A DNA stretch of 42,793 nucleotides, from the IMG/VR virus record IMGVR_UViG_2667527787_000008; one strand, written 5' to 3'. The DNA is from a virus (taxonomy: Duplodnaviria > Heunggongvirae > Uroviricota > Caudoviricetes). Positions 2,835 to 42,604 of this stretch are shown here, piece after piece. Below the pieces are notes generated by a model. The model was given only the letters and a program-made list of their open reading frames with translations. It was not told the DNA's origin and ran no database searches. How positions within the stretch are numbered: the stretch's first letter is position 1; each line of letters begins with the position of its first letter. The position numbers and the translations under genes are program-made.

Positions 2835-5800
2835 TTATGCCTGAGTACGCAGCGCTTCAAGGCGGCGCAGGTCGAAGTCGTTCAGTTCGTCGGTGTAGTC
2901 AGCAGTGATTGGCGCTGGCCATTCACCTGTGTCGAATCCGGTTGCGATATTGCGCATCGCTTTGCGGTACTCGAGCATACCCAGCTCCAGTAGTTCAGCG
3001 GATGCCTCGATGATGGCGATCCAGTGGTAGTTCTCGTCTTTGTTGACGAAAATCCAGAAGAACTGATCCAGCGCTGCGGTTTCGCAGTACATAGCCGCGC
3101 TCAGGTGATAATCACGTTCAATAATTTCCCGGTGTAGCCTGGCGCGCAGGCTTTCCTGCTTAACATTCCACATGCTGATGGTTTTCAGGTCAGCACCGAT
3201 ACGCACGCCGTCTAGGTCGATCTCAAGGTCAGGGCGCACACGAACTTCCAGTCCCGTCTCCTCGTCAAAGCCAAAGTAGCTCACCTCAACGGCGCGGCTC
3301 GGGTGGGTTAGCAGCATGCCTGCGGTCGGGTGCGAGAGCAGTGCTGACTGAATTGCCTGCGCGGTGGCAAGTTGCTGGTGGGTAACCAGCACTTTCCCTT
3401 CCGGGTTGTTGCGCCACGCATCGAGCAGCTCGTCGGCGAACACTGCATCTGGTTTGACTGCCTTCACGGCCTGAATCAGATCGGCCTTCGTGCCAGAGAC
3501 TTTCAGCGGTTGCAGCTTCTGAGCTTCCTGCGCGACCAGGTCAGGATTGATAATCGCAAGTTGTTCGAGTAGTGCGTCGCGGCTGCCGCTGGTTTTAATC
3601 TGCGCTGGCAGGGTGGCGTTGTACTCTTTGATGCACGCCTTCATTGCTGTTGCTGTCTTCTTCTGATCTGCATCGATACGTTGGAATTCAGCTGGCAGCG
3701 CCATATAGTTCTGCGCCGTTTCATCCAGGCTAGCGCCCAGCGGCACCAGCGCTGGCAGGGTGGCGTTGTATTCATCCAGCAAAGCTTTGATATCGTCTGC
3801 GCTCAGTTGCGCTGGCAGGCTGGCGTTGTACTCATCAATAAACGCGCGGATCGTTGCCGTGGTGGTAAATGCACCTTCCGGAATTACGGGTTCAACGCTA
3901 AATTCTTCATCGAGCTGTTCTGGCTGCAACGCCAGCGCATGTACCAGGTTTCCCATGTCCAGCACTGAGGAGCGCTCTTTGACGATGGTTTTCTCAACGT
4001 GGCGCGCATTGAAGTACATCAGCGAAACGCGCGCATCTTTTACCTGGGTGGAACTGATGCCGTTGGCAGCGTGGTAAACCTCGTTCGGCAGACCTTCATA
4101 GCGCCCAGGCTCGAAGTAATCGGGGTAAAAAACAGCTTGTTCGTCAGATTGCGCCTCTGGCTCGACGTGTGCCAAAACTGGTTCAGTCTGGTTTACAGAA
4201 TCGCTATTTTGAGCGACAGATTCCGTATTTTGGTTTACATCGGCCTGCTGGCCGGGATGTGACTCTTCACCAGTTTCCAGACTGCTTTCGCCTGACTGCA
4301 TTTCATTACCAACATTTTTTTCATCACTGACAGTTTCTTGAACCTGCACATTGCTGGTGGTTTCCGTAGCCTGTTTCGTGCCATGAGTTGCTGAGTTCTG
4401 CAGTAAAGCCGTAACATCGAATATTCCGTTGCCGACATTTTTAACCAGTTCTTGTTCGGCTTTATGTGGTTGTGCTGTCGCTTCCTCTGCGCGGCGGCGT
4501 GCTTCTTCTTCACGTACGCGTTGCAGGTTCTCTTCGTGAGTGCAGAAGGGTTTGCGTGGAGACTCCTTACTTTCAGGTTGGGGAATTTCCTGTGTTGCGG
4601 GCTCAGCTTCATGCAATGGCAATAACTCAACAGCAGCATTAAACGCAGCAGTCATGGTCCGGTTAACAAACTCCAGGTGAGCGACAGGAGTTAGATGAAT
4701 ATTTTCCGGCGCGATACGTATCAGGTTAAAAATAGCTGTGCGGTTAACGCCAAGAACGCCGGGTTGATTGCGCAGAATGCTGCTCCATGATTTCCACGGT
4801 TCTTCTTTTTTGGTCACGATTTCTTTAGCGCGACGAAGAATGCTGCCCGGGATCTCGAAGTGGTTGAAGTCCATAGGCAGAAGGGCACATGCAATCTCTA
4901 AATCGAGAGTGTCAAGGGTATGGTATGCATCAGGTCCACGGTCAGTGACGTAACCGCCGTTGGCATTGGTTCCGGAATCAGTACGCTGAACACTACTGAT
5001 GTGATTACCGGCAGCCCATTCACGCGCCAGGATGCCACGGTCAATGTAATCAGTCGCCGCCCACATTCTGGTGAAACGGAGTACCAGCGCGAGTTCGTGA
5101 CGCTTGTCCTGGCTGAACACTTTGCGAATGGCATCGGTGTAGCGCCACAGGTCTTTGGTGTCGTAACCCTTCACGTCCGGGCAGTTCTCAGCAGCTAACA
5201 GCAAGTTCTGGACGTAACTGTTATCAGTGTCCATCTCCAGCGCGCCGATAGCTTCGTACTCTTCGCGGGTTACGTGGTGGCGCAGTTCGTCGGCGGTGAA
5301 CTGGGAAAGCAGTTGCTTACGAAACGGCATCTGCACTACCGGGTAGAGGGTTGAGTCGTCGTCGTGTTCGTCCAGCGTGATGCCAGCGGTTTCTGGCAGC
5401 GTTGACTCAGTAGTTATGTGACTATCAACGGTCTGAGCCGTTTTCTCGTCAGAGTTTTCAGCTGTGACTTTTGGCATCCAGGTGCGGTCATCGTTCTGCA
5501 GTTCGTAGCGTTTGCACCAGGTGTAATCCACTGCGCCTTCTTCCGGCAGGTCGTCATATACCGGGAAATCGGTGCGGATTGGTTTGGCATAATCTTTACC
5601 GCGGCCAGTTTCTTCAATTCCGGCTTCTTCCAGTGCCACATCGAGTTGGAGATTGGCGCGCGCTACACTTTTCGCAGTGAACCAAATCACTGCATCTTTC
5701 TTGCCAGACTTCTGACTGGCTTTTATCAGATGGAAAAATTCCATGTGAGATCCTCTTTTTTGAGTGTTAGAATCCCCGGGCCAGAGATAGCGCCCATTGG

Positions 5801-5849
5801 ATGTTTTTTGGTTTGGTATAAATTCCGGTGTAACTTTGGTCGGTGGCAC
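2835..5849 (-). CDS. RecE-like exonuclease VIII (large multidomain protein, C-terminal nuclease domain)
   Basis: 1004 aa ORF, GTG start; position upstream of the RecT-like gene as in Rac recE-recT; central tandem EYNA(S/T)LPA repeats. Confidence 0.5.
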   Translation of the reverse strand: MPPTKVTPEFIPNQKTSNGRYLWPGDSNTQKRGSHMEFFHLIKASQKSGKKDAVIWFTAKSVARANLQLDVALEEAGIEETGRGKDYAKPIRTDFPVYDDLPEEGAVDYTWCKRYELQNDDRTWMPKVTAENSDEKTAQTVDSHITTESTLPETAGITLDEHDDDSTLYPVVQMPFRKQLLSQFTADELRHHVTREEYEAIGALEMDTDNSYVQNLLLAAENCPDVKGYDTKDLWRYTDAIRKVFSQDKRHELALVLRFTRMWAATDYIDRGILAREWAAGNHISSVQRTDSGTNANGGYVTDRGPDAYHTLDTLDLEIACALLPMDFNHFEIPGSILRRAKEIVTKKEEPWKSWSSILRNQPGVLGVNRTAIFNLIRIAPENIHLTPVAHLEFVNRTMTAAFNAAVELLPLHEAEPATQEIPQPESKESPRKPFCTHEENLQRVREEEARRRAEEATAQPHKAEQELVKNVGNGIFDVTALLQNSATHGTKQATETTSNVQVQETVSDEKNVGNEMQSGESSLETGEESHPGQQADVNQNTESVAQNSDSVNQTEPVLAHVEPEAQSDEQAVFYPDYFEPGRYEGLPNEVYHAANGISSTQVKDARVSLMYFNARHVEKTIVKERSSVLDMGNLVHALALQPEQLDEEFSVEPVIPEGAFTTTATIRAFIDEYNASLPAQLSADDIKALLDEYNATLPALVPLGASLDETAQNYMALPAEFQRIDADQKKTATAMKACIKEYNATLPAQIKTSGSRDALLEQLAIINPDLVAQEAQKLQPLKVSGTKADLIQAVKAVKPDAVFADELLDAWRNNPEGKVLVTHQQLATAQAIQSALLSHPTAGMLLTHPSRAVEVSYFGFDEETGLEVRVRPDLEIDLDGVRIGADLKTISMWNVKQESLRARLHREIIERDYHLSAAMYCETAALDQFFWIFVNKDENYHWIAIIEASAELLELGMLEYRKAMRNIATGFDTGEWPAPITADYTDELNDFDLRRLEALRTQA

Positions 5850-6262: not shown

Positions 6263-6519
6263 GATGTTCTCCACTATTGCTGAGTGAACTTCGCTGGTGG
6301 TGCCGTGACGCTGATCTTCACAGTTGAGCGTTTTAACTCTGCAATTCACCACCGCGAAGCTCACTTCTGTGTTTGCCCTTGTCGCCAGGCTGGCGGAACG
6401 TTTCAAACCTACTGCGCGTTAATATCACCACCTCATTCCGGTTTTCGTATGCCCCGGACGGCTACTTCGTGGGCTCCATGCCTGGGTGGTTCGTGGTGCG
6501 TCTTGGTGAGTTAGATTAA

Positions 6520-6580
6520 ATCACTGGTTTATATATGTGTCAACTTAAGGTTAGTGTTAATTGTAAATCTGAGGTTTATG
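6520..6580. promoter_or_regulatory. Putative leftward operator/promoter region (oL-like) with GGTTTAT repeats
   Basis: Motif TAAATCTGaGGTTTA at about 6564-6578 recurs in the repressor/cro intergenic region; second GGTTTAT at about 6526-6532. Confidence 0.3.
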
Positions 6581-6617
6581 TGGCTGGGTTTTGTGACACG
6601 TCTGCAGAATCGCAGGC

Positions 6618-6645
6618 AAAAAAAATCCCGACGCGTGGTCGGGAT
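6618..6645 (-). terminator. Rho-independent terminator closing the repressor-linked operon
   Basis: 7 bp GC-rich stem (TCCCGAC / GTCGGGA) with 5 nt loop, followed on the minus strand by a run of 8 U. Confidence 0.55.
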
Positions 6646-6717
6646 GAGAAGGTTCGGGGAAGGCGACAGAGTTAGTAGCTGAGAGCCTTATAACTCAGGC
6701 GTATTGACCAAATCTGA

Positions 6718-7239
6718 CTAAAAGAAGTGCATAAAAGCTTTGTACAGCCCTGTACCAATGGCGATAATCGCAGGGACACCTAAGAGAATCGCCAATTTAG
6801 CATCAGAGATTTTCTTGTCCACTGTGTCTGATGAGGGCTTTTTGTCTACAGACTCTTTGATACTAGACAGCCTCTCCAAAACTACAGCCATATTTTTGTC
6901 CAGTGAATTCACTGTCGTATCAACTTTTGAAACTGTGTTTTTTATCTCGGCAACATCTTTCTTGATGTGGGCAACTTCAACCTCAAGAATAGCCAATCTC
7001 TTTTCCATGTCGTCACCTCCATCTTCAGTTGACGTATGAATGATTTCAGTATCATCCATAGCAACTGATGTGACAATCCGTTTTTGTTTATCCGAAGCGG
7101 CAAAACTACAAGCACCCATAAGGAAGGTTGCTTGGCTCGAAGCTACTGATGAAAACTCTAAGCCTACTGTAGCTCCGCTATGGTCTGAATATGCAATCAA
7201 TAACTTCCCTTCACCAAGAGATGATTGAGCCGCATCCAT
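6718..7239 (-). CDS. Tail-anchored coiled-coil membrane protein (173 aa), candidate exclusion/abortive-infection effector
   Basis: ATG at 7239; central heptad-like region (EKRLAILEVEVAHIKKDVAEIKNTV...), C-terminal hydrophobic helix LAILLGVPAIIAIGTGLY; low GC; follows the 93 aa gene after a double TAA stop. Confidence 0.5.
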   Translation of the reverse strand: MDAAQSSLGEGKLLIAYSDHSGATVGLEFSSVASSQATFLMGACSFAASDKQKRIVTSVAMDDTEIIHTSTEDGGDDMEKRLAILEVEVAHIKKDVAEIKNTVSKVDTTVNSLDKNMAVVLERLSSIKESVDKKPSSDTVDKKISDAKLAILLGVPAIIAIGTGLYKAFMHFF

Positions 7240-7245
7240 CAATTA

Positions 7246-7527
7246 TTATTCCTCAAACATACTTTTTAAGGATTGATAAAAATCATAAGCCTTTTGTTTG
7301 CTTAAAGTCACAGACACAACTTTGGTTCGCTGCATGCCCTTGACGACTATATCCGCATTATCCGTACCGATGATCGGGCTGCTATTCAGGAACACAAAAT
7401 TGTAAACTTCGTAACCGGCATTTTGTGTGCCGATTGTTACGACACCGTCAGCATTGGTCTCGATGAAATTTTTCGCTTCGATTACATCATTAAGATGCAT
7501 AAGTTCGACGGTTGTTTCTTTAGACAC
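7246..7527 (-). CDS. Hypothetical 93 aa protein, first gene of the repressor-linked cassette
   Basis: GTG start with GGAGGA ribosome-binding site 64 nt downstream of the repressor stop; same strand; low GC; no recognisable motif. Confidence 0.5.
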   Translation of the reverse strand: MSKETTVELMHLNDVIEAKNFIETNADGVVTIGTQNAGYEVYNFVFLNSSPIIGTDNADIVVKGMQRTKVVSVTLSKQKAYDFYQSLKSMFEE

Positions 7528-7591
7528 CGAATCCTCCAGAAGATATTAAATCTTGAAATATTTTTATTACATGGAATTAGATACTACTGGT

Positions 7592-7981
7592 TTAGGTTTG
7601 CTCACCTTGCGATCGAATCCGACCCTTCATGTACTTCTCGTACAGCTCATCTAACTCTTTCAGGCGAAGCGCAAAAATGCGGAGCATGTTCTGCTGCTCT
7701 TCTTCCGGTAACTGGCGGTAGAGCTCGAGCAAACGCTGTTCGTCCGGTTTGAGACCGTCTTTCTCCCCAACGTCTTCACCGAGTAGCCAGGCGACAGAAA
7801 TACCAACAGCGTCGGCTATGGCCAGTGCCGATTTCTTACTAATCACGCCTTTTTTGAACCAGCCGTTTACGGCCTGAGGGGTGACTCCAGCTATTCTTGC
7901 CATGTCTGCTTTGGTAACGCCGCGATCAGTGATCTCAGTAAGGCGCTCCACCAGAACGAGGTTGGGTTCTTCTTTTCTCAT
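7592..7981 (-). CDS. Prophage repressor, DicA-like Cro/C1-type HTH protein (129 aa)
   Basis: HTH segment TKADMARIAGVTPQAVNGW; C-terminal LLELYRQLPEEEQ... resembles DicA; the ORF-track N-terminal extension to 8251 is rejected; divergent from the cro-like gene. Confidence 0.7.
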   Translation of the reverse strand: MRKEEPNLVLVERLTEITDRGVTKADMARIAGVTPQAVNGWFKKGVISKKSALAIADAVGISVAWLLGEDVGEKDGLKPDEQRLLELYRQLPEEEQQNMLRIFALRLKELDELYEKYMKGRIRSQGEQT

Positions 7982-7994
7982 ATGGTCATTGTAA

Positions 7995-8058
7995 ATATTT
8001 GGTTTATGCACGCAATAAATCCAAAGTTTGCATGAAGTATAAATCTGTGGTTTACTTC
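7995..8058. promoter_or_regulatory. Putative oR-like operator/divergent promoter region
   Basis: Intergenic region between divergent repressor and cro-like genes; GGTTTAT at about 8001-8007 and TAAATCTGtGGTTTA at about 8040-8054, shared with oL. Confidence 0.35.
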
Positions 8059-11579: not shown

Positions 11580-11960
11580 TTAACTTTTTTGTGTGTTAAG
11601 TCCAATTCTGACTCCACACATAAAATCACCAATACCTGCGCCAACACTGTTCCCATCAGCAACATAATCACCTTTGAAAGCTAATTTCCCATCCATATAG
11701 AAGAATCTTATCTCCCCATATCCACTATCACAGTCGGCATCTTTAATACTAACTTTGTAGTACTCTACTTTTTTATTTTTTGTTTGATACATGAACAAGG
11801 CAGATGAATCACCTTTTACATTTCTAAATGTGCCTTTTTTTGCTGAAAAAATGCCATCATCAGCTGTAGTAACCTCAACCCAGTTACTTGTCGTTTCAGC
11901 AAAAGCAACACTTGCAACAAAAAGAGCAGAAAAGCCCAGTAATGCGATTTTCTTAGCCAT
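11580..11960 (-). CDS. Secreted (Sec signal peptide) small protein, low-GC moron
   Basis: ATG at 11960; signal peptide MAKKIALLGFSALFVASVAFA then mature domain of about 105 aa with 2 Cys; AT-rich codon usage. Confidence 0.55.
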   Translation of the reverse strand: MAKKIALLGFSALFVASVAFAETTSNWVEVTTADDGIFSAKKGTFRNVKGDSSALFMYQTKNKKVEYYKVSIKDADCDSGYGEIRFFYMDGKLAFKGDYVADGNSVGAGIGDFMCGVRIGLNTQKS

Positions 11961-12090
11961 AAACAATATTCCATTTATTTAGGATTTTTCTTGATTCTAT
12001 CTGTGTTTTAAATAACGTTCAACTACACACCGCATGCCTTCTTAAATGGGCATGGAGAGCCATTCAACCCCGTAGCTTTAGCAACGCAAC

Positions 12091-12660: not shown

Positions 12661-13224
12661 CTATCCTGCATCTTCTTCGACATTGTATTTTCGTTGCTCA
12701 ATATCCCATGGAAGCGCAGGTTGTTTGCGAACTAGTTTTCTTTTGCCGTTTGAGAAAAAATAAGTTCTGAGTTCTAAAAAATGGCGGCGTTTTTTCGTTT
12801 GAGGCTCATAGGTGATAAGAAAAAAAATCAAAGGCCTGCTTGCTTCACTCCATATTCTACTTGCTTTTTCAATAACAATATTGATGTTTTCATGCTGACA
12901 ATATGAGATGAATGTGGAGAAATAGCACTTGTCGTTTTTTTCAAGCAGTTTGTCTAACTCGTTAACGCTATCTCTGTCTGCCTGATTATACTCCCACTCA
13001 ACATAGGTTAAAATTTGATTGTCTGGATATTGTAGGACCGCATCGGTACGCCCGCCTTGTTCAAAAAATGTTCTTGCGCCCATTAACTTTGCACACTCGC
13101 GCATGACCAGGCCAACATGAATGGTCCAGTTGGAACGGTTGATATATTCACCTTTGAACACAGGGAAATCTTGATACCACACACAATTAAACAGACAGAT
13201 AAAATCGCGCTCTACTCGCTTCAA
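12661..13224 (-). CDS. Hypothetical 187 aa protein, low-GC moron (TTG start; internal ATG alternative)
   Basis: Long ORF in an AT-rich island between the replication/nin genes and dinI-like gene; no recognisable family. Confidence 0.4.
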   Translation of the reverse strand: MKRVERDFICLFNCVWYQDFPVFKGEYINRSNWTIHVGLVMRECAKLMGARTFFEQGGRTDAVLQYPDNQILTYVEWEYNQADRDSVNELDKLLEKNDKCYFSTFISYCQHENINIVIEKASRIWSEASRPLIFFLITYEPQTKKRRHFLELRTYFFSNGKRKLVRKQPALPWDIEQRKYNVEEDAG

Positions 13225-25695: not shown

Positions 25696-26640
25696 ATGAT
25701 TACCATTGATAAGGCCACCGTAGACGCTGCTGGCGTATTCCTGGTCGGCGAACTTGAACGCCTCGACCAGACGCTCAACCTGCCGCTGGTTAGCTATAAG
25801 TGGTCGCGCGATATGCCTCTGCGTAGCGATGTTTCTATCGCCGACGAGCAGTCATCTTTCACCAACACCGATCTGGCAGCCGCTGGTGGTGTAAACCCGA
25901 ACGGTAAAAACTGGATAGGCAAAAACTCCACCGCGCTTCCGCAGACCAATCTCTATATCGAGAAGACCGCACAGCCGCTTAGCCTGTGGGGTATGGAGCT
26001 GGGCTGGACCTTGCCGGAACTGGCTTCAGCGCAGCAGGTTGGACGCCCAATCGACAGCCAAAAGTATGATGCCATGCAGCTGAAATGGAACATGGACATC
26101 GATGAGCAGGTTTATATCGGCGACAGCGACATGGGTATCACCGGCCTGTTGAACCTTTCCCAGGTAACGCCGATCAGCGCAGCCAAAGCGTGGGCCACCG
26201 CCAGCCCTGACGAAATCGTACAGGACTTTAACCTCATCCTCTCCCAGGCATGGGTGACTTCAGGTTACGCAATTTGCCCGAAAAAAGTCGGCCTGGCGCC
26301 GGAGTTATTCGGCCTGCTGGCAAGCAAGAAGGTTTCTGATGCGGGCAATATCTCCGTGCTGGAGTACGTGAAAGTTAACTGTATCGCGTTCCAGGAAAAC
26401 GGCGAACCGCTGGAAATCGTGTCCATGAAATGGGCATCCAAACGCGGCGCGGCTGGTGCACACCGCGTTGTAGCGTACACCCAGGATGAGAAATTCATTC
26501 GCTTCCCGCTGGTGCCGCTGCTGAATACCCCGCTGGAATACCGCGGCCTGTATCAGCTGACAACCTACTACGGCCGCCTGGGCCAGGTGGAAACCCCGTA
26601 CGGCAACACCATTGCCTACATGGACGTGCCTGCAGCTTAA
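25696..26640 (+). CDS. Major capsid protein
   Basis: 314 aa ORF at the canonical position after the scaffold, strong coding character. Confidence 0.65.
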   Translation: MITIDKATVDAAGVFLVGELERLDQTLNLPLVSYKWSRDMPLRSDVSIADEQSSFTNTDLAAAGGVNPNGKNWIGKNSTALPQTNLYIEKTAQPLSLWGMELGWTLPELASAQQVGRPIDSQKYDAMQLKWNMDIDEQVYIGDSDMGITGLLNLSQVTPISAAKAWATASPDEIVQDFNLILSQAWVTSGYAICPKKVGLAPELFGLLASKKVSDAGNISVLEYVKVNCIAFQENGEPLEIVSMKWASKRGAAGAHRVVAYTQDEKFIRFPLVPLLNTPLEYRGLYQLTTYYGRLGQVETPYGNTIAYMDVPAA

Positions 26641-26677
26641 CCCCTATGGCGGGGCAACCCGCCGTTCTGGAGAGAAC

Positions 26678-27043
26678 ATGAAATATCTCGTTAATACCGG
26701 GACCGTGCTGCGCTTTGCCGATGGTTCGCAGGTAGAACTTACCCCTGGCGTGCACAGCTTCGATAAGCGCGTTACCGAGCACTGGGCTTTTGGTGCGCAT
26801 GCGCAGGCCATCAGTGAAGAAGATCTGAAGCAGAGCCAGGGAGGCGAAGACCTCTCGCTTAAGATCTCGGCGCTGGAATCCACCATCGCCGGCCTGCAGC
26901 AGCAGGTGACGGATAAGGATGTCACTATCGCAGAGCAGTCAGACACCATCGCCGGCCTGCAGCAGCAGCTGGATGATCTGACTGAGAAGCTTGCATCACA
27001 GGAGGCTGGCAATGCCAAAAAACAGCCTTCTGCCAACAAGTGA
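26678..27043 (+). CDS. Hypothetical coiled-coil head-associated protein with internal repeat
   Basis: ATG at 26678 with GGAGA ribosome-binding site; duplicated segment TIAGLQQQ encoded by a 25 bp exact direct repeat. Confidence 0.45.
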   Translation: MKYLVNTGTVLRFADGSQVELTPGVHSFDKRVTEHWAFGAHAQAISEEDLKQSQGGEDLSLKISALESTIAGLQQQVTDKDVTIAEQSDTIAGLQQQLDDLTEKLASQEAGNAKKQPSANK

Positions 27044-39174: not shown

Positions 39175-39953
39175 TGGCTGGAACTAATGATTTTAAAGCG
39201 TTTGCGACAGATGCTAATGCAAATGTTACCTCGCAGGAGGAATGGGAGACGCTAACCGCACTGAAGAAAGGATTCTCCTCGGGTAAAGCATCCAGCGCAC
39301 AGGTCAGTAAAGCGCTGCGCCAACCGTCGACGATGGCGGCTGTACTGGGGCAGTTTATCGCGAACGCCGAACTGGACGCGCTCGATGATGGTGACGTTGA
39401 TGGACTGGTGGCAAAGCTGGCGACAGCGATTACCACAAACCTTGGTTTGGGAGAAGGCTCAGCATTACCCGTTGGCGTACCTGTTCCGTGGCCTTCAGCC
39501 ACACCGCCGACAGGCTGGCTGAAATGCAACGGTGCCGCTTTTTCTGCTGAAGAATACCCGGAACTGGCAAAGGCTTACCCGACAAATAAATTGCCTGATT
39601 TACGTGGTGAGTTTATTCGTGGCTGGGATGACGGGCGTGGAGTGGATAGCGGTCGTACTTTATTAACGAATCAAGAGCATGCAGTAATTTCTCATAATCA
39701 TGGAATACCTACAAAAGTGGGGTCAGTTACTAATATCCCGTATGGAATAGAACAGGTTATATCTGATGAAACCATTTTTTCATCAGCAAAAACAGTTGGT
39801 GTGGATTACTGGTCTAACAGTGAAAGAGTTTTTACTTATACCTCTGGTGGAAGAAATGGTGCTGAATCAGTGAGTTCACCTGATGCCTCCTCTTTAATTA
39901 AAGAAACCAGACCACGGAACCTAGCATTTGCGTATATCGTGAGGGCTGCATAA
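39174..39953 (+). CDS. Tail fibre protein (constant N-terminus plus currently expressed variable C-terminus, Sv)
   Basis: GWLKCNGAAFSAEEYPELAKAYPTNKLPDLRGEFIRGWDDGRG tail-collar-type motif; inversion crossover site at codon about 96; AT-rich 3-prime part. Confidence 0.7.
   Translation: MAGTNDFKAFATDANANVTSQEEWETLTALKKGFSSGKASSAQVSKALRQPSTMAAVLGQFIANAELDALDDGDVDGLVAKLATAITTNLGLGEGSALPVGVPVPWPSATPPTGWLKCNGAAFSAEEYPELAKAYPTNKLPDLRGEFIRGWDDGRGVDSGRTLLTNQEHAVISHNHGIPTKVGSVTNIPYGIEQVISDETIFSSAKTVGVDYWSNSERVFTYTSGGRNGAESVSSPDASSLIKETRPRNLAFAYIVRAA
39432..39457. other. Left crossover site of the invertible tail-fibre segment (gix/hix-like)
   Basis: ACCACAAACC-TT-GGTTTGGGAGAA; inner half-site repeated in inverted orientation at the right site. 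Confidence 0.5.
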
Positions 39954-40555
39954 TGGTGAAAGCAAAATTAAACAGTGCGTTTATTGCCACCGTGGCAGGT
40001 GAAATCACTGTGTACAACTACCGGGGCGACACCCGCGAATACATATCCTCATCGGTTGAGTATCTGCCTGTGGGGGTGGGTATTCCTGCCAATTCCTGTA
40101 CCGATGCGCCCGGCACACATAAAGCTGGTTATGCAATCTGCCGTTCTGCAGATTTTAACTCATGGGAATATGTGCCAGACCATCGCGGTGAAACGGTATA
40201 TAGCACTGAAACAGGAGAATCAAAAGAAATCACAGCTCCGGGTGATTACTCTGAAAATACAACTACTATCGCCCCGTTAACGCCATTCGATAAATGGGAT
40301 GGTGAGAAATGGGTGACCGATACTGAGGCACAGCATAGCGCCGCAGTAGACGTGGCAGAAGCACAGCGCCAGTCGCTGATTGATGCTGCTATGGCTTCCA
40401 TCAGTCTGATTCAGCTGAAATTGCAGGCCGGGCGGCAACTGACGCAAGCAGAAATCACTCGCCTTAACGCTGTGCTGGATTACATTGACACGGTGACGGC
40501 AACAGATACCAGCACCGCGCCGGATGTCATCTGGCCTGAACTGCCGGAGGCGTAG
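39953..40555 (+). CDS. Tail fibre assembly protein (Tfa)
   Basis: 200 aa; C-terminal motif LNAVLDYIDTVTATDTSTAPDVIWPELP typical of the tail fibre assembly family. Confidence 0.7.
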   Translation: MVKAKLNSAFIATVAGEITVYNYRGDTREYISSSVEYLPVGVGIPANSCTDAPGTHKAGYAICRSADFNSWEYVPDHRGETVYSTETGESKEITAPGDYSENTTTIAPLTPFDKWDGEKWVTDTEAQHSAAVDVAEAQRQSLIDAAMASISLIQLKLQAGRQLTQAEITRLNAVLDYIDTVTATDTSTAPDVIWPELPEA

Positions 40556-40970
40556 GCCATTCAATATCTGGAGCACTGGAGGTATCAACCAGTTCCAGTG
40601 CGTCCAGATAATCCAGCCACAAATTATATTGCGCCAGTTCCTCACTTTTCAGACGACCAATCGCCGCTTTGCCAGGCCACTGATGAGTATTGATGTAGGT
40701 ATTGACTTCAGAAACCAAAGATATTTTTTTCATTTCAGCCGTCAACACCTCATCCTCTTTTGAAGGGGGTGGGGAATTAATCCATACTGGCCGTCCTGAA
40801 CTGTCAGCGCCAATTTCTTTCCCTTCTGGATGCAGCCCAAGAAATTGCTCATATGTTTCTCTGGTAATTTCAATAACATCATCAGGAAGCGTTCCCGCAT
40901 CCTCATATTCTGGAAACAATTCTTGCAGATAAAAACTTTTACTTCCGGGTGAAAAGAATACTGAGTTCAT
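40527..40970 (-). CDS. Alternative tail fibre assembly protein (Tfa-prime) within the invertible segment
   Basis: 147 aa; C-terminal LWLDYLDALELVDTSSAPDIEWPTPP paralogous to Tfa; convergent with and overlapping tfa. Confidence 0.65.
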   Translation of the reverse strand: MNSVFFSPGSKSFYLQELFPEYEDAGTLPDDVIEITRETYEQFLGLHPEGKEIGADSSGRPVWINSPPPSKEDEVLTAEMKKISLVSEVNTYINTHQWPGKAAIGRLKSEELAQYNLWLDYLDALELVDTSSAPDIEWPTPPAVQAR

Positions 40971-40972
40971 TC

Positions 40973-41425
40973 TTACCGTCCAATGATTAATGCTGAGACG
41001 CTGGTATCTGAAGGAAAGGCTGCATTCAGTGGTTTGTCGACTTTGAACACAATCGTATTATTCCCCCTGACAGCGGCAAAAGAACAAACCGCAGTCGCGT
41101 ATGAACCTGTAATATTACTGGATACACCACCATAAGCTGTTGTTGATACCAGAGGGATAACGCCCAGCACCTTATTAGGAAATACAAAGGGCAATGTGGC
41201 TGTGGCAATATAAGACTTATTAGAACCTGTAATGGCATAAGCATTATCAGTCATTCCATTCATCGCCACCGGGCCGCTTATACTTACAGTAACCATCTGA
41301 ATGATTAGCCCGTCAGGTTGACGAATCACAAAATTTCCATTGCCACCAGTAACCGTCCAGAAAGACATATCAGGGATTTGGTTTTCCCCGTTGCCCACAT
41401 TCCGTTTTGCCGCTTCTCCCAAACC
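40973..41425 (-). CDS. Promoterless alternative tail-fibre C-terminal segment (Sv-prime)
   Basis: Begins with GLGE encoded by GGTTTGGGAGAA, the same as the current junction in the expressed fibre; Gly/Thr/Ser-rich fibre-like composition. Confidence 0.6.
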   Translation of the reverse strand, partial: GLGEAAKRNVGNGENQIPDMSFWTVTGGNGNFVIRQPDGLIIQMVTVSISGPVAMNGMTDNAYAITGSNKSYIATATLPFVFPNKVLGVIPLVSTTAYGGVSSNITGSYATAVCSFAAVRGNNTIVFKVDKPLNAAFPSDTSVSALIIGR

Positions 41426-41439
41426 AACCTTTTTTATAA
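41414..41439. other. Right crossover site of the invertible segment (gix/hix-like)
   Basis: TTCTCCCAAACC-AA-CCTTTTTTATAA resembles Hin/Gin crossover sites; about 60 bp upstream of the invertase start. Confidence 0.5.
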
Positions 41440-41498
41440 CCATCAAAAATCTGGTGATGCTTCGCCGTTTCTCCTGTTTTCATAACAGGAGAAATCCC

Positions 41499-42047
41499 AT
41501 GATTTACGGTTATGCCCGAGTATCAACAAACCACCAGGACACTGAATTGCAACTAACGGCGCTCAAGTCAGCGGGTTGTGAGAAAATTTTTGAAGAGCAT
41601 GCCAGCGGGAGGAAATCGAATCGGCCGGTTCTAAAACGGCTGATCGCCACTATGCAGCCGGGGGATGAACTGGTGGTCTGGAAGCTGGACAGGATAGGCC
41701 GCAACGTTCTGCATGCGCTGTTGATGTTCCAGCAGTTACAGGAAAAGGGTATCAACTTCCGCAGTATTACCGATGGCGTGGATCTCAAAACAGCCAGCGG
41801 CCGCTATAACTTTCGTAACATCCTTTCCGCAGCACAATATGAATCTGATCTTAATAGCGAACGTACCTTAGCAGGGCTGGCCGTAGCCAGGGCAAAAGGG
41901 CGAGTTGGTGGTCGCAGGCCTAAGTTCACGGATGAGCAATGGCGGGAAATGGGGGAGCGGATGGCAACCGGTGAATCACGACAAAGCGTATCAAAAACGT
42001 ATGGAGTAGGGCTCTCAACTCTGTATAAAAAGTTTCCAGCTAGCTGA
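41499..42047 (+). CDS. Serine DNA invertase (Pin/Gin/Hin/Cin family)
   Basis: 182 aa MIYGYARVSTNHQDTELQLTALKSAGCEKIFEEHASG... with catalytic Ser in YARVST and C-terminal HTH; adjacent to the invertible segment. Confidence 0.85.
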   Translation: MIYGYARVSTNHQDTELQLTALKSAGCEKIFEEHASGRKSNRPVLKRLIATMQPGDELVVWKLDRIGRNVLHALLMFQQLQEKGINFRSITDGVDLKTASGRYNFRNILSAAQYESDLNSERTLAGLAVARAKGRVGGRRPKFTDEQWREMGERMATGESRQSVSKTYGVGLSTLYKKFPAS

Positions 42048-42067
42048 TAACGGGAAAGAAACAGAGA

Positions 42068-42105
42068 AGGGCACAAATATTGTGTACTTTAATGTGCCCT
42101 TTAAT
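42068..42105. terminator. Putative bidirectional terminator between invertase and yciI; probable prophage right boundary region
   Basis: Stem AGGGCACA / TGTGCCCT with long loop, T-rich on both sides. Confidence 0.3.
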
Positions 42106-42165
42106 TTATTGATTGGTGGTTGAATTGTCCGTAACTTTTTGATTTAAGTGCAAATTTCTAATAAA

Positions 42166-42462
42166 TTAGAACGCTTTCTTAAATGGTTTCACTGAAACGT
42201 GTTCATAGACTCCTGCCGCTACGTACGGGTCAGCATCGGCCCAGGCCTGAGCTGCTTCCAGCGATTCAAATTCAGCAATAACGGTTGAGCCAGTAAATCC
42301 CGCAGCCCCTGGATCGTTACTGTCTACCGCTGGCATTGGACCAGCTGTCAACAAACGACCTTCATCATGCAGTAACTGTAAACGTGCTAAATGTGCCGGA
42401 CGAACGGAAAGGCGTTTTTCGAGGCTATCAGCTTTGTCTTGAGCGTAAATAACATACAACAC
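42166..42462 (-). CDS. yciI: YciI-like protein (chromosomal)
   Basis: About 98 aa from GTG with AGGAG ribosome-binding site; adjacent to and divergent from tonB as in E. coli. Confidence 0.6.
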
Positions 42463-42604
42463 GGGCACAACTCCTTGTTCGGGAAAGTTGTAAAGTACGT
42501 TATTTGAAAGGGCGAAGATCTGCAACGGAAAGATGATGTCTTTGTTAAGGCCATGCATAAAGTAAGGGTAATTACGCCAAAAATGACATTTTCACTGATC
42601 CTGA

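Follow-up and report, generated by a model that had tools for sequence, protein, structure and literature searches.

A mobile, repressor-linked gene pair in the rexAB position of a Rac-like Escherichia coli prophage, and a candidate phage-exclusion module

The window analyzed in this study, the whole 42,793-nucleotide (nt) stretch of the IMG/VR virus record IMGVR_UViG_2667527787_000008 (Caudoviricetes), consists of a complete E. coli prophage of about 42 kb, in which two small genes, termed A and B, lie between the prophage repressor gene and a putative left operator region (oL). The pair was found to be an autonomous, horizontally mobile two-gene accessory module (moron). As to its function, we see about an even chance that it is a lysogen-expressed phage-exclusion module of the abortive kind, composed of a soluble sensor and a membrane-tethered output. 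This functional reading was inferred from position, architecture, and modular evolution, and phage exclusion would fit the genomic position, the pairing, the mobility, the foreign composition, the detection of a protein product, the membrane partner, and the combination of a variable head with a tail that is either conserved or exchanged.

Gene A (7246-7527, minus strand) encodes 93 amino acids (aa), starts with GTG at 7527-7525 behind the ribosome-binding site GGAGGA (7537-7532), and ends in a TAA TAA double stop. It is followed by gene B (6718-7239, minus strand), which starts with ATG at 7239 and encodes 173 aa. The 93-aa reading with the GTG start was preferred over the 84-aa call of the Prokaryotic Genome Annotation Pipeline (PGAP), because homologues keep the same N-terminal residues. 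Protein A was soluble and acidic, a beta-rich structure and a C-terminal helix were predicted for it, and hydropathy analysis identified no hydrophobic or transmembrane (TM) segment in it. It matched phrog_12039 over positions 1-93 of 93 (1.6e-47), while B matched phrog_12602 over positions 1-147 of 183 (2.7e-54); the function of both families is given as unknown in PHROG. The C-terminal half of B also matched phrog_3556.

Alignments delineated an N-terminal domain of B (aa 1-70; 7030-7239, minus strand), predicted to form a beta-hairpin and a helix, and a Gly-rich hinge with the sequence TEDGGDD (7009-7029, minus strand), where G74 was invariant and G75 nearly so. The Gly-rich hinge was also kept in a second alignment. 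According to heptad analysis, the next segment is a coiled coil of about nine heptads (aa 78-135; 6835-7008, minus strand) that ends at a KKPS motif. Its register was unbroken from aa 76 to 140, with L, I, V, or M at 89% of the a/d positions versus 11% elsewhere, and the KKPS motif was invariant, with K134, P135, and S136 identical throughout the alignment. A single hydrophobic segment was present in the entire protein, the C-terminal TM helix AKLAILLGVPAIIAIGTGLYKAF (aa 147-169; 6733-6801, minus strand), which had a Kyte-Doolittle (KD) value of 1.96 in a 19-residue window and was followed by about four residues. As B has no signal peptide and an acidic N-terminal part of 146 aa, we infer that it is a tail-anchored inner-membrane protein with an N-in topology.

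The GC (guanine-cytosine) content was 0.397 in A and 0.42 in B, in comparison to 0.518 in the repressor gene and 0.528 in the window, so that the cassette is foreign in composition (about 40% versus 53% GC). Comparisons with homologues from Citrobacter, Enterobacter, Cronobacter, and other E. coli phages yielded nonsynonymous distances (dN) of 0.1-0.45, saturated synonymous distances (dS), and dN/dS ratios of 0.06-0.36; both A and B are under purifying selection. The start, ribosome-binding, and stop signals of the 93-aa gene, the 173-aa gene downstream of it, the higher AT content relative to the prophage backbone, and the topology of B as a soluble N-terminal domain, a coiled coil, and one C-terminal TM helix had all been proposed in an earlier reading of the window (the original prediction), and were all confirmed here, the topology by heptad and hydropathy analyses.

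The exact cassette was found in 13 of 5,426 complete E. coli genomes. Diverged copies of A and the B N-terminal domain were found in 106 of them (about 2%), mostly in O157:H7 strains. Loci were fetched by protein identity and from IMG/VR, which resulted in 41 loci with an A homologue; the HK544 locus was incomplete in this collection, and its B was confirmed in phage HK544 itself. B started 4-7 nt after A in every one of these loci (41/41). The survey of neighboring genes that the original prediction had proposed bore out the linkage to repressors, as the same-strand gene upstream of the pair was a phage repressor in all 41. The preceding repressors comprised more than 12 different sequences in several unrelated clusters, among them short proteins like RacR/DicA, S24-type cI proteins of several unrelated kinds, and, in HK544, the authentic lambda cI, and the backbones that carried the pair were Rac-like, lambda-like (in the order cI-A-B-N-sieB), or P22-like. 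The only exception found came from outside those loci, a metagenome contig from Rahnella in which the pair was preceded by a DUF3024 gene. When 1.84 billion representative proteins were searched with the A profile, only about 14 true A clusters were identified; two from the most divergent end were inspected, and both had the order cI-A-B. Separately, the locus L068 contained a third same-strand gene after A and B (3296-3670), whose 124-aa product combines a TM helix at the N-terminus with a coiled coil, an architecture that mirrors that of B.

In the wild phage HK544, which has lambda immunity, the pair stands where lambda has rexAB. The corresponding genes are HK544c104 and HK544c103, and the features marked in its GenBank record are oL, a Timm-like terminator, HK544c103, HK544c104, cI, pRM, and the right operator region (oR). 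In VT1-Sakai (Sp15), the Shiga toxin 1 (Stx1) prophage of the O157:H7 strain Sakai, A is ECs2991 and B is H0053/ECs2992. The proteins of both phages are true homologues of those in the window, with A being 74-75% identical and B 55% identical over 96% of its length, and both share with the window the layout cI, A, B, terminator, oL, N. In contrast, their B proteins have 183 aa and another C-terminal TM tail (type c), and their repressors are S24-type cI proteins, unlike the repressor of the window. The pair is annotated in these records as conserved hypothetical at most, and A is unannotated in AP000400. Related phages carry a separate sieB gene beyond N.

A wider modular family was identified around the C-terminal module of B (hinge, coiled coil, KKPS motif, and TM helix), which defined, at the 90% identity level, at least 269 clusters. 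All matches that bore an organism name belonged to the Enterobacterales, and nearly all named proteins were called hypothetical. Shorter B proteins of about 90-150 aa carried other N-termini, and a different small gene preceded each of them. At least six A families were distinguished, with lengths of 93, 87-91, 88, 119 (with Cys pairs), 136-187, and 139 aa, and no Pfam or PADLOC match was obtained for any of them. The 93-aa and 88-aa classes are probably remote homologues (hhalign probability 59%, E-value 9e-5, collinear), while the 87-aa class had a weak similarity only. Among 51 unique pairs, the A family predicted the type of B N-terminus. For example, the 93-aa A family was accompanied by the matching N-terminus type in 22 of 22 unique pairs, and the B proteins of those same pairs ended in three unrelated TM tails (11, 3, and 8 pairs). 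As judged from these sequences, A and the B N-terminus evolve as one unit, the coiled-coil and TM part is kept or exchanged independently of them, and recombination occurs within the stalk. Most pairs of the wider family followed a repressor gene. Some were separately oriented inserts, located either among the tail genes, between those for gpK-like and gpI-like proteins and adjacent to gpL, or close to antirepressor genes, and the occurrence of intact pairs in such slots identifies the pair as an autonomous mobile unit.

Disrupted and reduced copies of the locus were also observed. In E. coli KL53 (NZ_CP030919.1; locus L116, 1917-3501), the insertion sequence IS3 interrupts B toward its 3' end. 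The remaining B is truncated to 119 aa and lacks the TM helix, whereas neither A nor the repressor is damaged, which makes this strain a natural B knock-out; since A is kept intact where the TM end of B has been removed, A alone is tolerated. In the O157:H7 strain 86-24, a prophage remnant (locus L120, 1-5538) has kept sieB, N, B, A, the repressor, and cro, with a truncated capsid gene directly after cro, so that the immunity block and the cassette have outlasted a large deletion. A toxin-antitoxin (TA)-like addiction module that stabilizes the prophage, in which A restrains the membrane toxin B, would be compatible with the small gene coming first and the membrane protein 4-7 nt on, with the obligate pairing, with the tolerance of KL53 to losing the TM end of B while A is retained, and with the retention of the repressor and the pair in the 86-24 remnant. 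Nevertheless, we regard such a module as very unlikely. Searches of Pfam, NCBIfam, and PDB profiles found no DNA-binding or antitoxin family signature in A, and the module probably relies on the repressor promoter rather than on an autoregulated operon; TA and defense functions are, moreover, compatible with each other.

The location of the pair in the window was resolved by its flanking control sites. The 15-mer TAAACCNNNNATTTA occurs in exactly four copies in the 42.8-kb window, two at oL and two at oR, compared to a chance expectation of about 0.5 matches, and none of 100 shuffles reached five. The copies of each pair are spaced by 47-48 bp, and one pair lies on either side of the repressor-A-B block. 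They probably serve as operators in this type of immunity, with only two sites per side rather than three, and their position shows that the cassette, which lies between the repressor and oL, is part of the immunity region. The oL region (6515-6578, minus strand) contains the copies at 6517-6531 and 6564-6578, together with a putative pL promoter on the minus strand (-35 TTGACA at 6543-6538, -10 TTTAAT at 6520-6515, 17-nt spacer), which was read from the sequence, overlaps the first oL copy, and points toward kil, ydaE, and recE. The oR region (7992-8054, minus strand) contains the copies at 7992-8006 and 8040-8054. Our own reading of the sequence also placed a putative repressor promoter in oR, on the minus strand (-35 TTGCGT at 8015-8010, -10 TACAAT at 7993-7988). 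This TTGCGT-16 nt-TACAAT element ends 6 nt ahead of the repressor ATG at 7981, which points to a repressor mRNA without a leader, like the one made from lambda pRM. In the PGAP annotation, the repressor starts at GTG 8011 instead of ATG 7981.

A 64-nt spacer (7528-7591, minus strand) separates the repressor gene from A; it contains the GGAGGA ribosome-binding site (7532-7537) and no terminator-like site, and A and B are likely cotranscribed with the repressor. Downstream of B, an intrinsic terminator was found at 6617-6645 on the minus strand (ATCCCGAC-CACGC-GTCGGGAT, then T8), with an 8-bp stem that includes five GC pairs and a 5-nt loop. It closes the repressor-A-B unit as an equivalent of tImm and separates it from pL. 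Counterparts are annotated in the HK544 and VT1-Sakai records, and in the latter the terminator after H0053 is annotated as the end of the pRM transcript. The strong terminator and the cI-rexA-rexB layout described in the original prediction were thus both recovered, with the operators just beyond the hairpin and the T8 tract, and with the pair between the repressor and oL and in place of rexAB in HK544. Of its comparison to a rexAB/sieB position, the rexAB slot was upheld, while the likeness to sieB is positional only; the Pfam SieB profile matched neither A nor B.

The common orientation of the pair and the repressor would also suit a regulator of the prophage's own development, acting either on the lysis-lysogeny switch, as RexA, or on lysis timing, as an XhlA-like holin accessory. 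One study describes RexA as biasing the lambda switch (PMC11077077). Like B, XhlA-type proteins are small and combine a coiled coil in the cytoplasm with a TM helix at the C-terminus; weak matches of B to XhlA-type "hemolysin" families of PHROG (phrog_937, 1.4e-5; phrog_1193, 5.7e-3) were obtained, and one UniRef entry in the B family is named "Hemolysin XhlA". However, the PHROG similarity was confined to the coiled coil, and XhlA was not among the Pfam matches of B at E<=1. XhlA-type proteins belong to lysis cassettes, whereas the pair sits in the immunity region, isolated from pL by the terminator, and the prophage of the window encodes a holin, a lysozyme, and Rz1 of its own, in genes located behind Q and away from A and B. 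In addition, the pair accompanies more than 12 unrelated repressors and is not confined to immunity regions, and a role in the prophage's own development therefore appears highly doubtful.

A homologue of protein A has been detected in a lysogen. ECs2991 (10 kDa, Q8X2Z1) was among 394 proteins identified by isobaric tagging for relative and absolute quantitation (iTRAQ) in the uninduced O157:H7 strain 86-24, where the order repressor-A-B-N-sieB is found in the partly deleted prophage, and it was listed as up-regulated in unfiltered rumen fluid versus LB medium, alongside ElaB and YqjD. This would fit a lysogenic conversion factor unrelated to phages, that is, a membrane-tethered stress or physiology factor like ElaB, YqjD, and YgaM (DUF883). 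The architecture is the same in these proteins, with a helical cytoplasmic part and a C-terminal anchor in a tail-anchored inner-membrane topology. In contrast, they are encoded by single chromosomal genes that have no partner gene and no phage linkage, and DUF883 was not found among the Pfam matches of B, which included only sub-threshold coiled-coil matches. Neither the strict tie of the pair to immunity regions and moron slots nor the arms-race-like diversification of A and the B N-terminus would be expected for a housekeeping-type role, and we consider a stress factor unlikely.

The layout in the window is that of lambda RexAB, where the two genes likewise follow the repressor immediately, share its strand, and end at a terminator before oL/pL, and where the gene for a soluble protein comes first and the gene for a membrane protein second. 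There is no sequence relationship to A or B, and Rex families were absent from the Pfam, NCBIfam, and PADLOC matches of either protein. RexA is a 279-aa DNA-binding protein, while A has only 93 aa and no detectable domain; RexB is polytopic with four TM helices, while B has one C-terminal TM helix and a long coiled coil. RexAB acts against T4 rII and other phages by depolarizing the membrane. To our knowledge, the mechanism of RexAB is still unclear after 60 years. RexB has been described as an ion channel (PMC8585504).

Other repressor-linked systems were also compared. BstA, a prophage defense protein known from BTP1 and other prophages and validated in abortive infection, has its gene tied to the repressor locus, and it is found in the same slot of a sibling Rac-like prophage; it differs in being encoded by a single gene, without a membrane anchor and without homology to A or B. 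The bstA gene probably shares the cI (repressor) promoter, and its product acts at phage DNA replication sites (PMC8585504). The BstA profile of PADLOC matched neither A nor B, and the same library detected BstA in the sibling prophage of E. coli H6. Two-gene, prophage-expressed defenses near the repressor that have been compared with RexAB also include gp30/gp31 of mycobacteriophage Sbash and a RexAB-type system of Pseudomonas putida, the latter downstream of a cI-like repressor gene with two additional genes in between (PMC12894663). These involve unrelated proteins and hosts, with no PADLOC or Pfam match to A or B.

Searches for known families returned no specific identity for either protein, in line with the lack of a recognized family in the original prediction. 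A had no match in Pfam, NCBIfam, PADLOC v2.0.0, or PDB profile searches, and B only had generic sub-threshold coiled-coil matches in Pfam, NCBIfam, and PADLOC. SlyX, IcmG/DotF, LmuB, and similar candidates for B were rejected as such generic matches, all of which were under the cut-offs. A, B, five other A classes, and three further B variants gave no specific match in PADLOC-DB v2.0.0, a search whose coverage ended before the databases and screens later than 2023. PDB profile searches aligned the N-terminal domain of B to designed WD40 repeats, with no single stretch being significant, and the match was dismissed as an artefact because weak matches to a repeated beta-hairpin are summed. A relationship of A and the B N-terminal domain as paralogous hairpin-helix units was likewise rejected (hhalign probability 0.1%), and a weak match of the B profile at 26612-27043 of the window, in the head-gene region, was considered coiled-coil noise.

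The slot between the repressor and oL varied in content among sibling Rac-like prophages whose flanks were identical or nearly so. It was empty in some, and held a 466-467-aa protein of unknown function in others, three small open reading frames (ORFs) in phage PHB10, or a 117-aa ORF and a FumD-like ORF in another sibling prophage. In E. coli H6, the slot (locus L115, 4458-5219) holds a BstA homologue (PADLOC, 2e-15) that is divided over two ORFs, one for the KilA-N part and one for the C-terminal part, and is annotated with a KilA-N domain. The cI-N interval has been called a mosaic hotspot, with rexAB (in lambda) and bstA (in BTP1) found in it (PMC8585504, PMC7067206). As a separate observation, a family of convergent ORFs of 64-69 aa often separated pL from the cargo, regardless of what that cargo was (L004 6552-6749, L009 6025-6234, L091 3311-3505, L115 4221-4427, and L112 4252-4461, the last of which is named FumD by PGAP); no counterpart was found in the window by tblastn.

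If the pair does act in phage exclusion, the following sequence of events may be proposed. A and B would be made in lysogeny as the tail of the repressor transcript, with the exclusion of other phages as their likeliest job. A would bind the N-terminal tip of B, thus forming a specificity (sensor) head at the inner-membrane face. Upon infection, a phage product would engage this head, the oligomeric state of the stalk would shift, and the TM helices would cluster, whereby the inner membrane would be perturbed or depolarized and the infection would abort. The logic would thereby resemble that of RexA and RexB, implemented by unrelated proteins, and upon prophage induction the transcription of the repressor would stop, which would limit self-harm.

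Several observations weigh against phage exclusion by this route. No homology of A or B to validated defense proteins was found in PADLOC v2.0.0. The cargo of the slot is not always defensive. AlphaFold2 predictions reached a mean predicted local distance difference test (pLDDT) score of 41.3 for A alone (14-sequence alignment) and of 43.0 for an A-linker-B fusion (11-row paired alignment), and at values of 41-43 neither a fold nor an A-B interface was obtained. Furthermore, the three interchangeable and unrelated TM tails may mean that the TM helix is a mere anchor and not a pore-forming effector, in which case a non-lethal exclusion or tethering role would be favored; alternatively, the interchangeable tails may represent swappable effectors.

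A mere anchor would suit non-abortive superinfection exclusion, where A and B at the cytoplasmic face of the inner membrane block genome entry or early ejection without killing, like SieA, Imm, and HK97 gp15. The genomic position, the lysogen expression, and the membrane location fit such an entry block equally well, and interchangeable TM tails are suited to a protein that needs only its membrane location. On the other hand, B is nearly all cytoplasmic, with about four residues past the TM helix, while the entry blockers known so far work as single membrane proteins, either facing the periplasm or polytopic, that require no soluble partner. No homology to them was detected in Pfam or PADLOC, and we rate an entry block as rather improbable. 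Returning to abortive exclusion, a more far-reaching version would make the pair the founding example of a sizeable Enterobacterales-specific defense family, with an exchangeable sensor (A and the N-terminal tip of B) on a tail-anchored coiled-coil stalk whose TM ends can be swapped, and abortion by ligand-driven clustering of the single-pass anchors in the inner membrane, which would amount to a new effector principle. Such a family would have occupied the place of rexAB in numerous lambdoid, Rac-like, and P22-like phages, the Stx1 phage of E. coli O157:H7 among them. This version is put forward only tentatively as the less probable side of the question.

The presence of an A-B pair in the rexAB position is not new and cannot be counted as a discovery, because GenBank EF120455 (2007) already lists two conserved hypothetical genes there. 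Searches by accession, locus tag, and keyword, with a coverage that did not extend to a recent E. coli prophage defense screen (2025), found no functional study, family definition, or defense-database entry for the pair, and the family-level architecture and the co-variation of A with the B N-terminus appear to be undescribed. If its function were confirmed, the pair would be a sequence-unrelated addition to the few repressor-linked prophage exclusion systems (RexAB, BstA), with a far simpler membrane component than RexB, consisting of one TM helix on a coiled coil. The natural domain swaps would separate the sensor from the output and make the mechanism easy to dissect. Given its presence in about 2% of E. 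coli genomes and in the Stx1 prophage, it could shape which phages, including therapeutic ones, grow on these pathogens, as well as the competition among Stx phages. Even if it is not a defense system, it would still be an abundant lysogen-expressed prophage gene pair in an important pathogen.

With regard to the prophage as a whole, it is located between kch and yciI in strain NCTC11023. Its early region is Rac-like, in the order integrase, RecT, RecE, YdaE, Kil (phrog_294, 2e-36), the cassette region, YdaS/Cro-like, YdaT/cII-like, and a replication gene. The repressor (7592-7981, minus strand; ATG at 7981) is a short helix-turn-helix (HTH) protein of 129 aa of the DicA/RacR type, without an S24 peptidase domain, and it matched HTH_3 (1.5e-6) and Phage_CI_repr (8.6e-4) in Pfam and DicA (1.9e-8) in NCBIfam. 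The divergent YdaS/Cro and YdaT/cII-like genes adjoin it.

Additional features were observed outside the immunity region. The RecE-like ORF (2835-5849) was intact in the window, with 1,004 aa, and the corresponding region of the otherwise same prophage in NCTC11023 is annotated as two genes (L001 5336-8245). Two hypothetical ORFs (11580-11966 and 12661-13224, both on the minus strand) had a GC content of 0.36-0.40 and lay on the strand opposite to their neighbors in the replication module, the former opening with the signal-peptide-like MFMAKKIALLGFSALFVASVAFA; judging from these features, both are probably additional morons. At one end of the prophage (about 39950-42600; L119 2399-4835), a recombinase gene adjoins duplicated, oppositely oriented genes for tail fibers and tail-fiber assembly proteins, an arrangement that looks like an invertible host-range segment.

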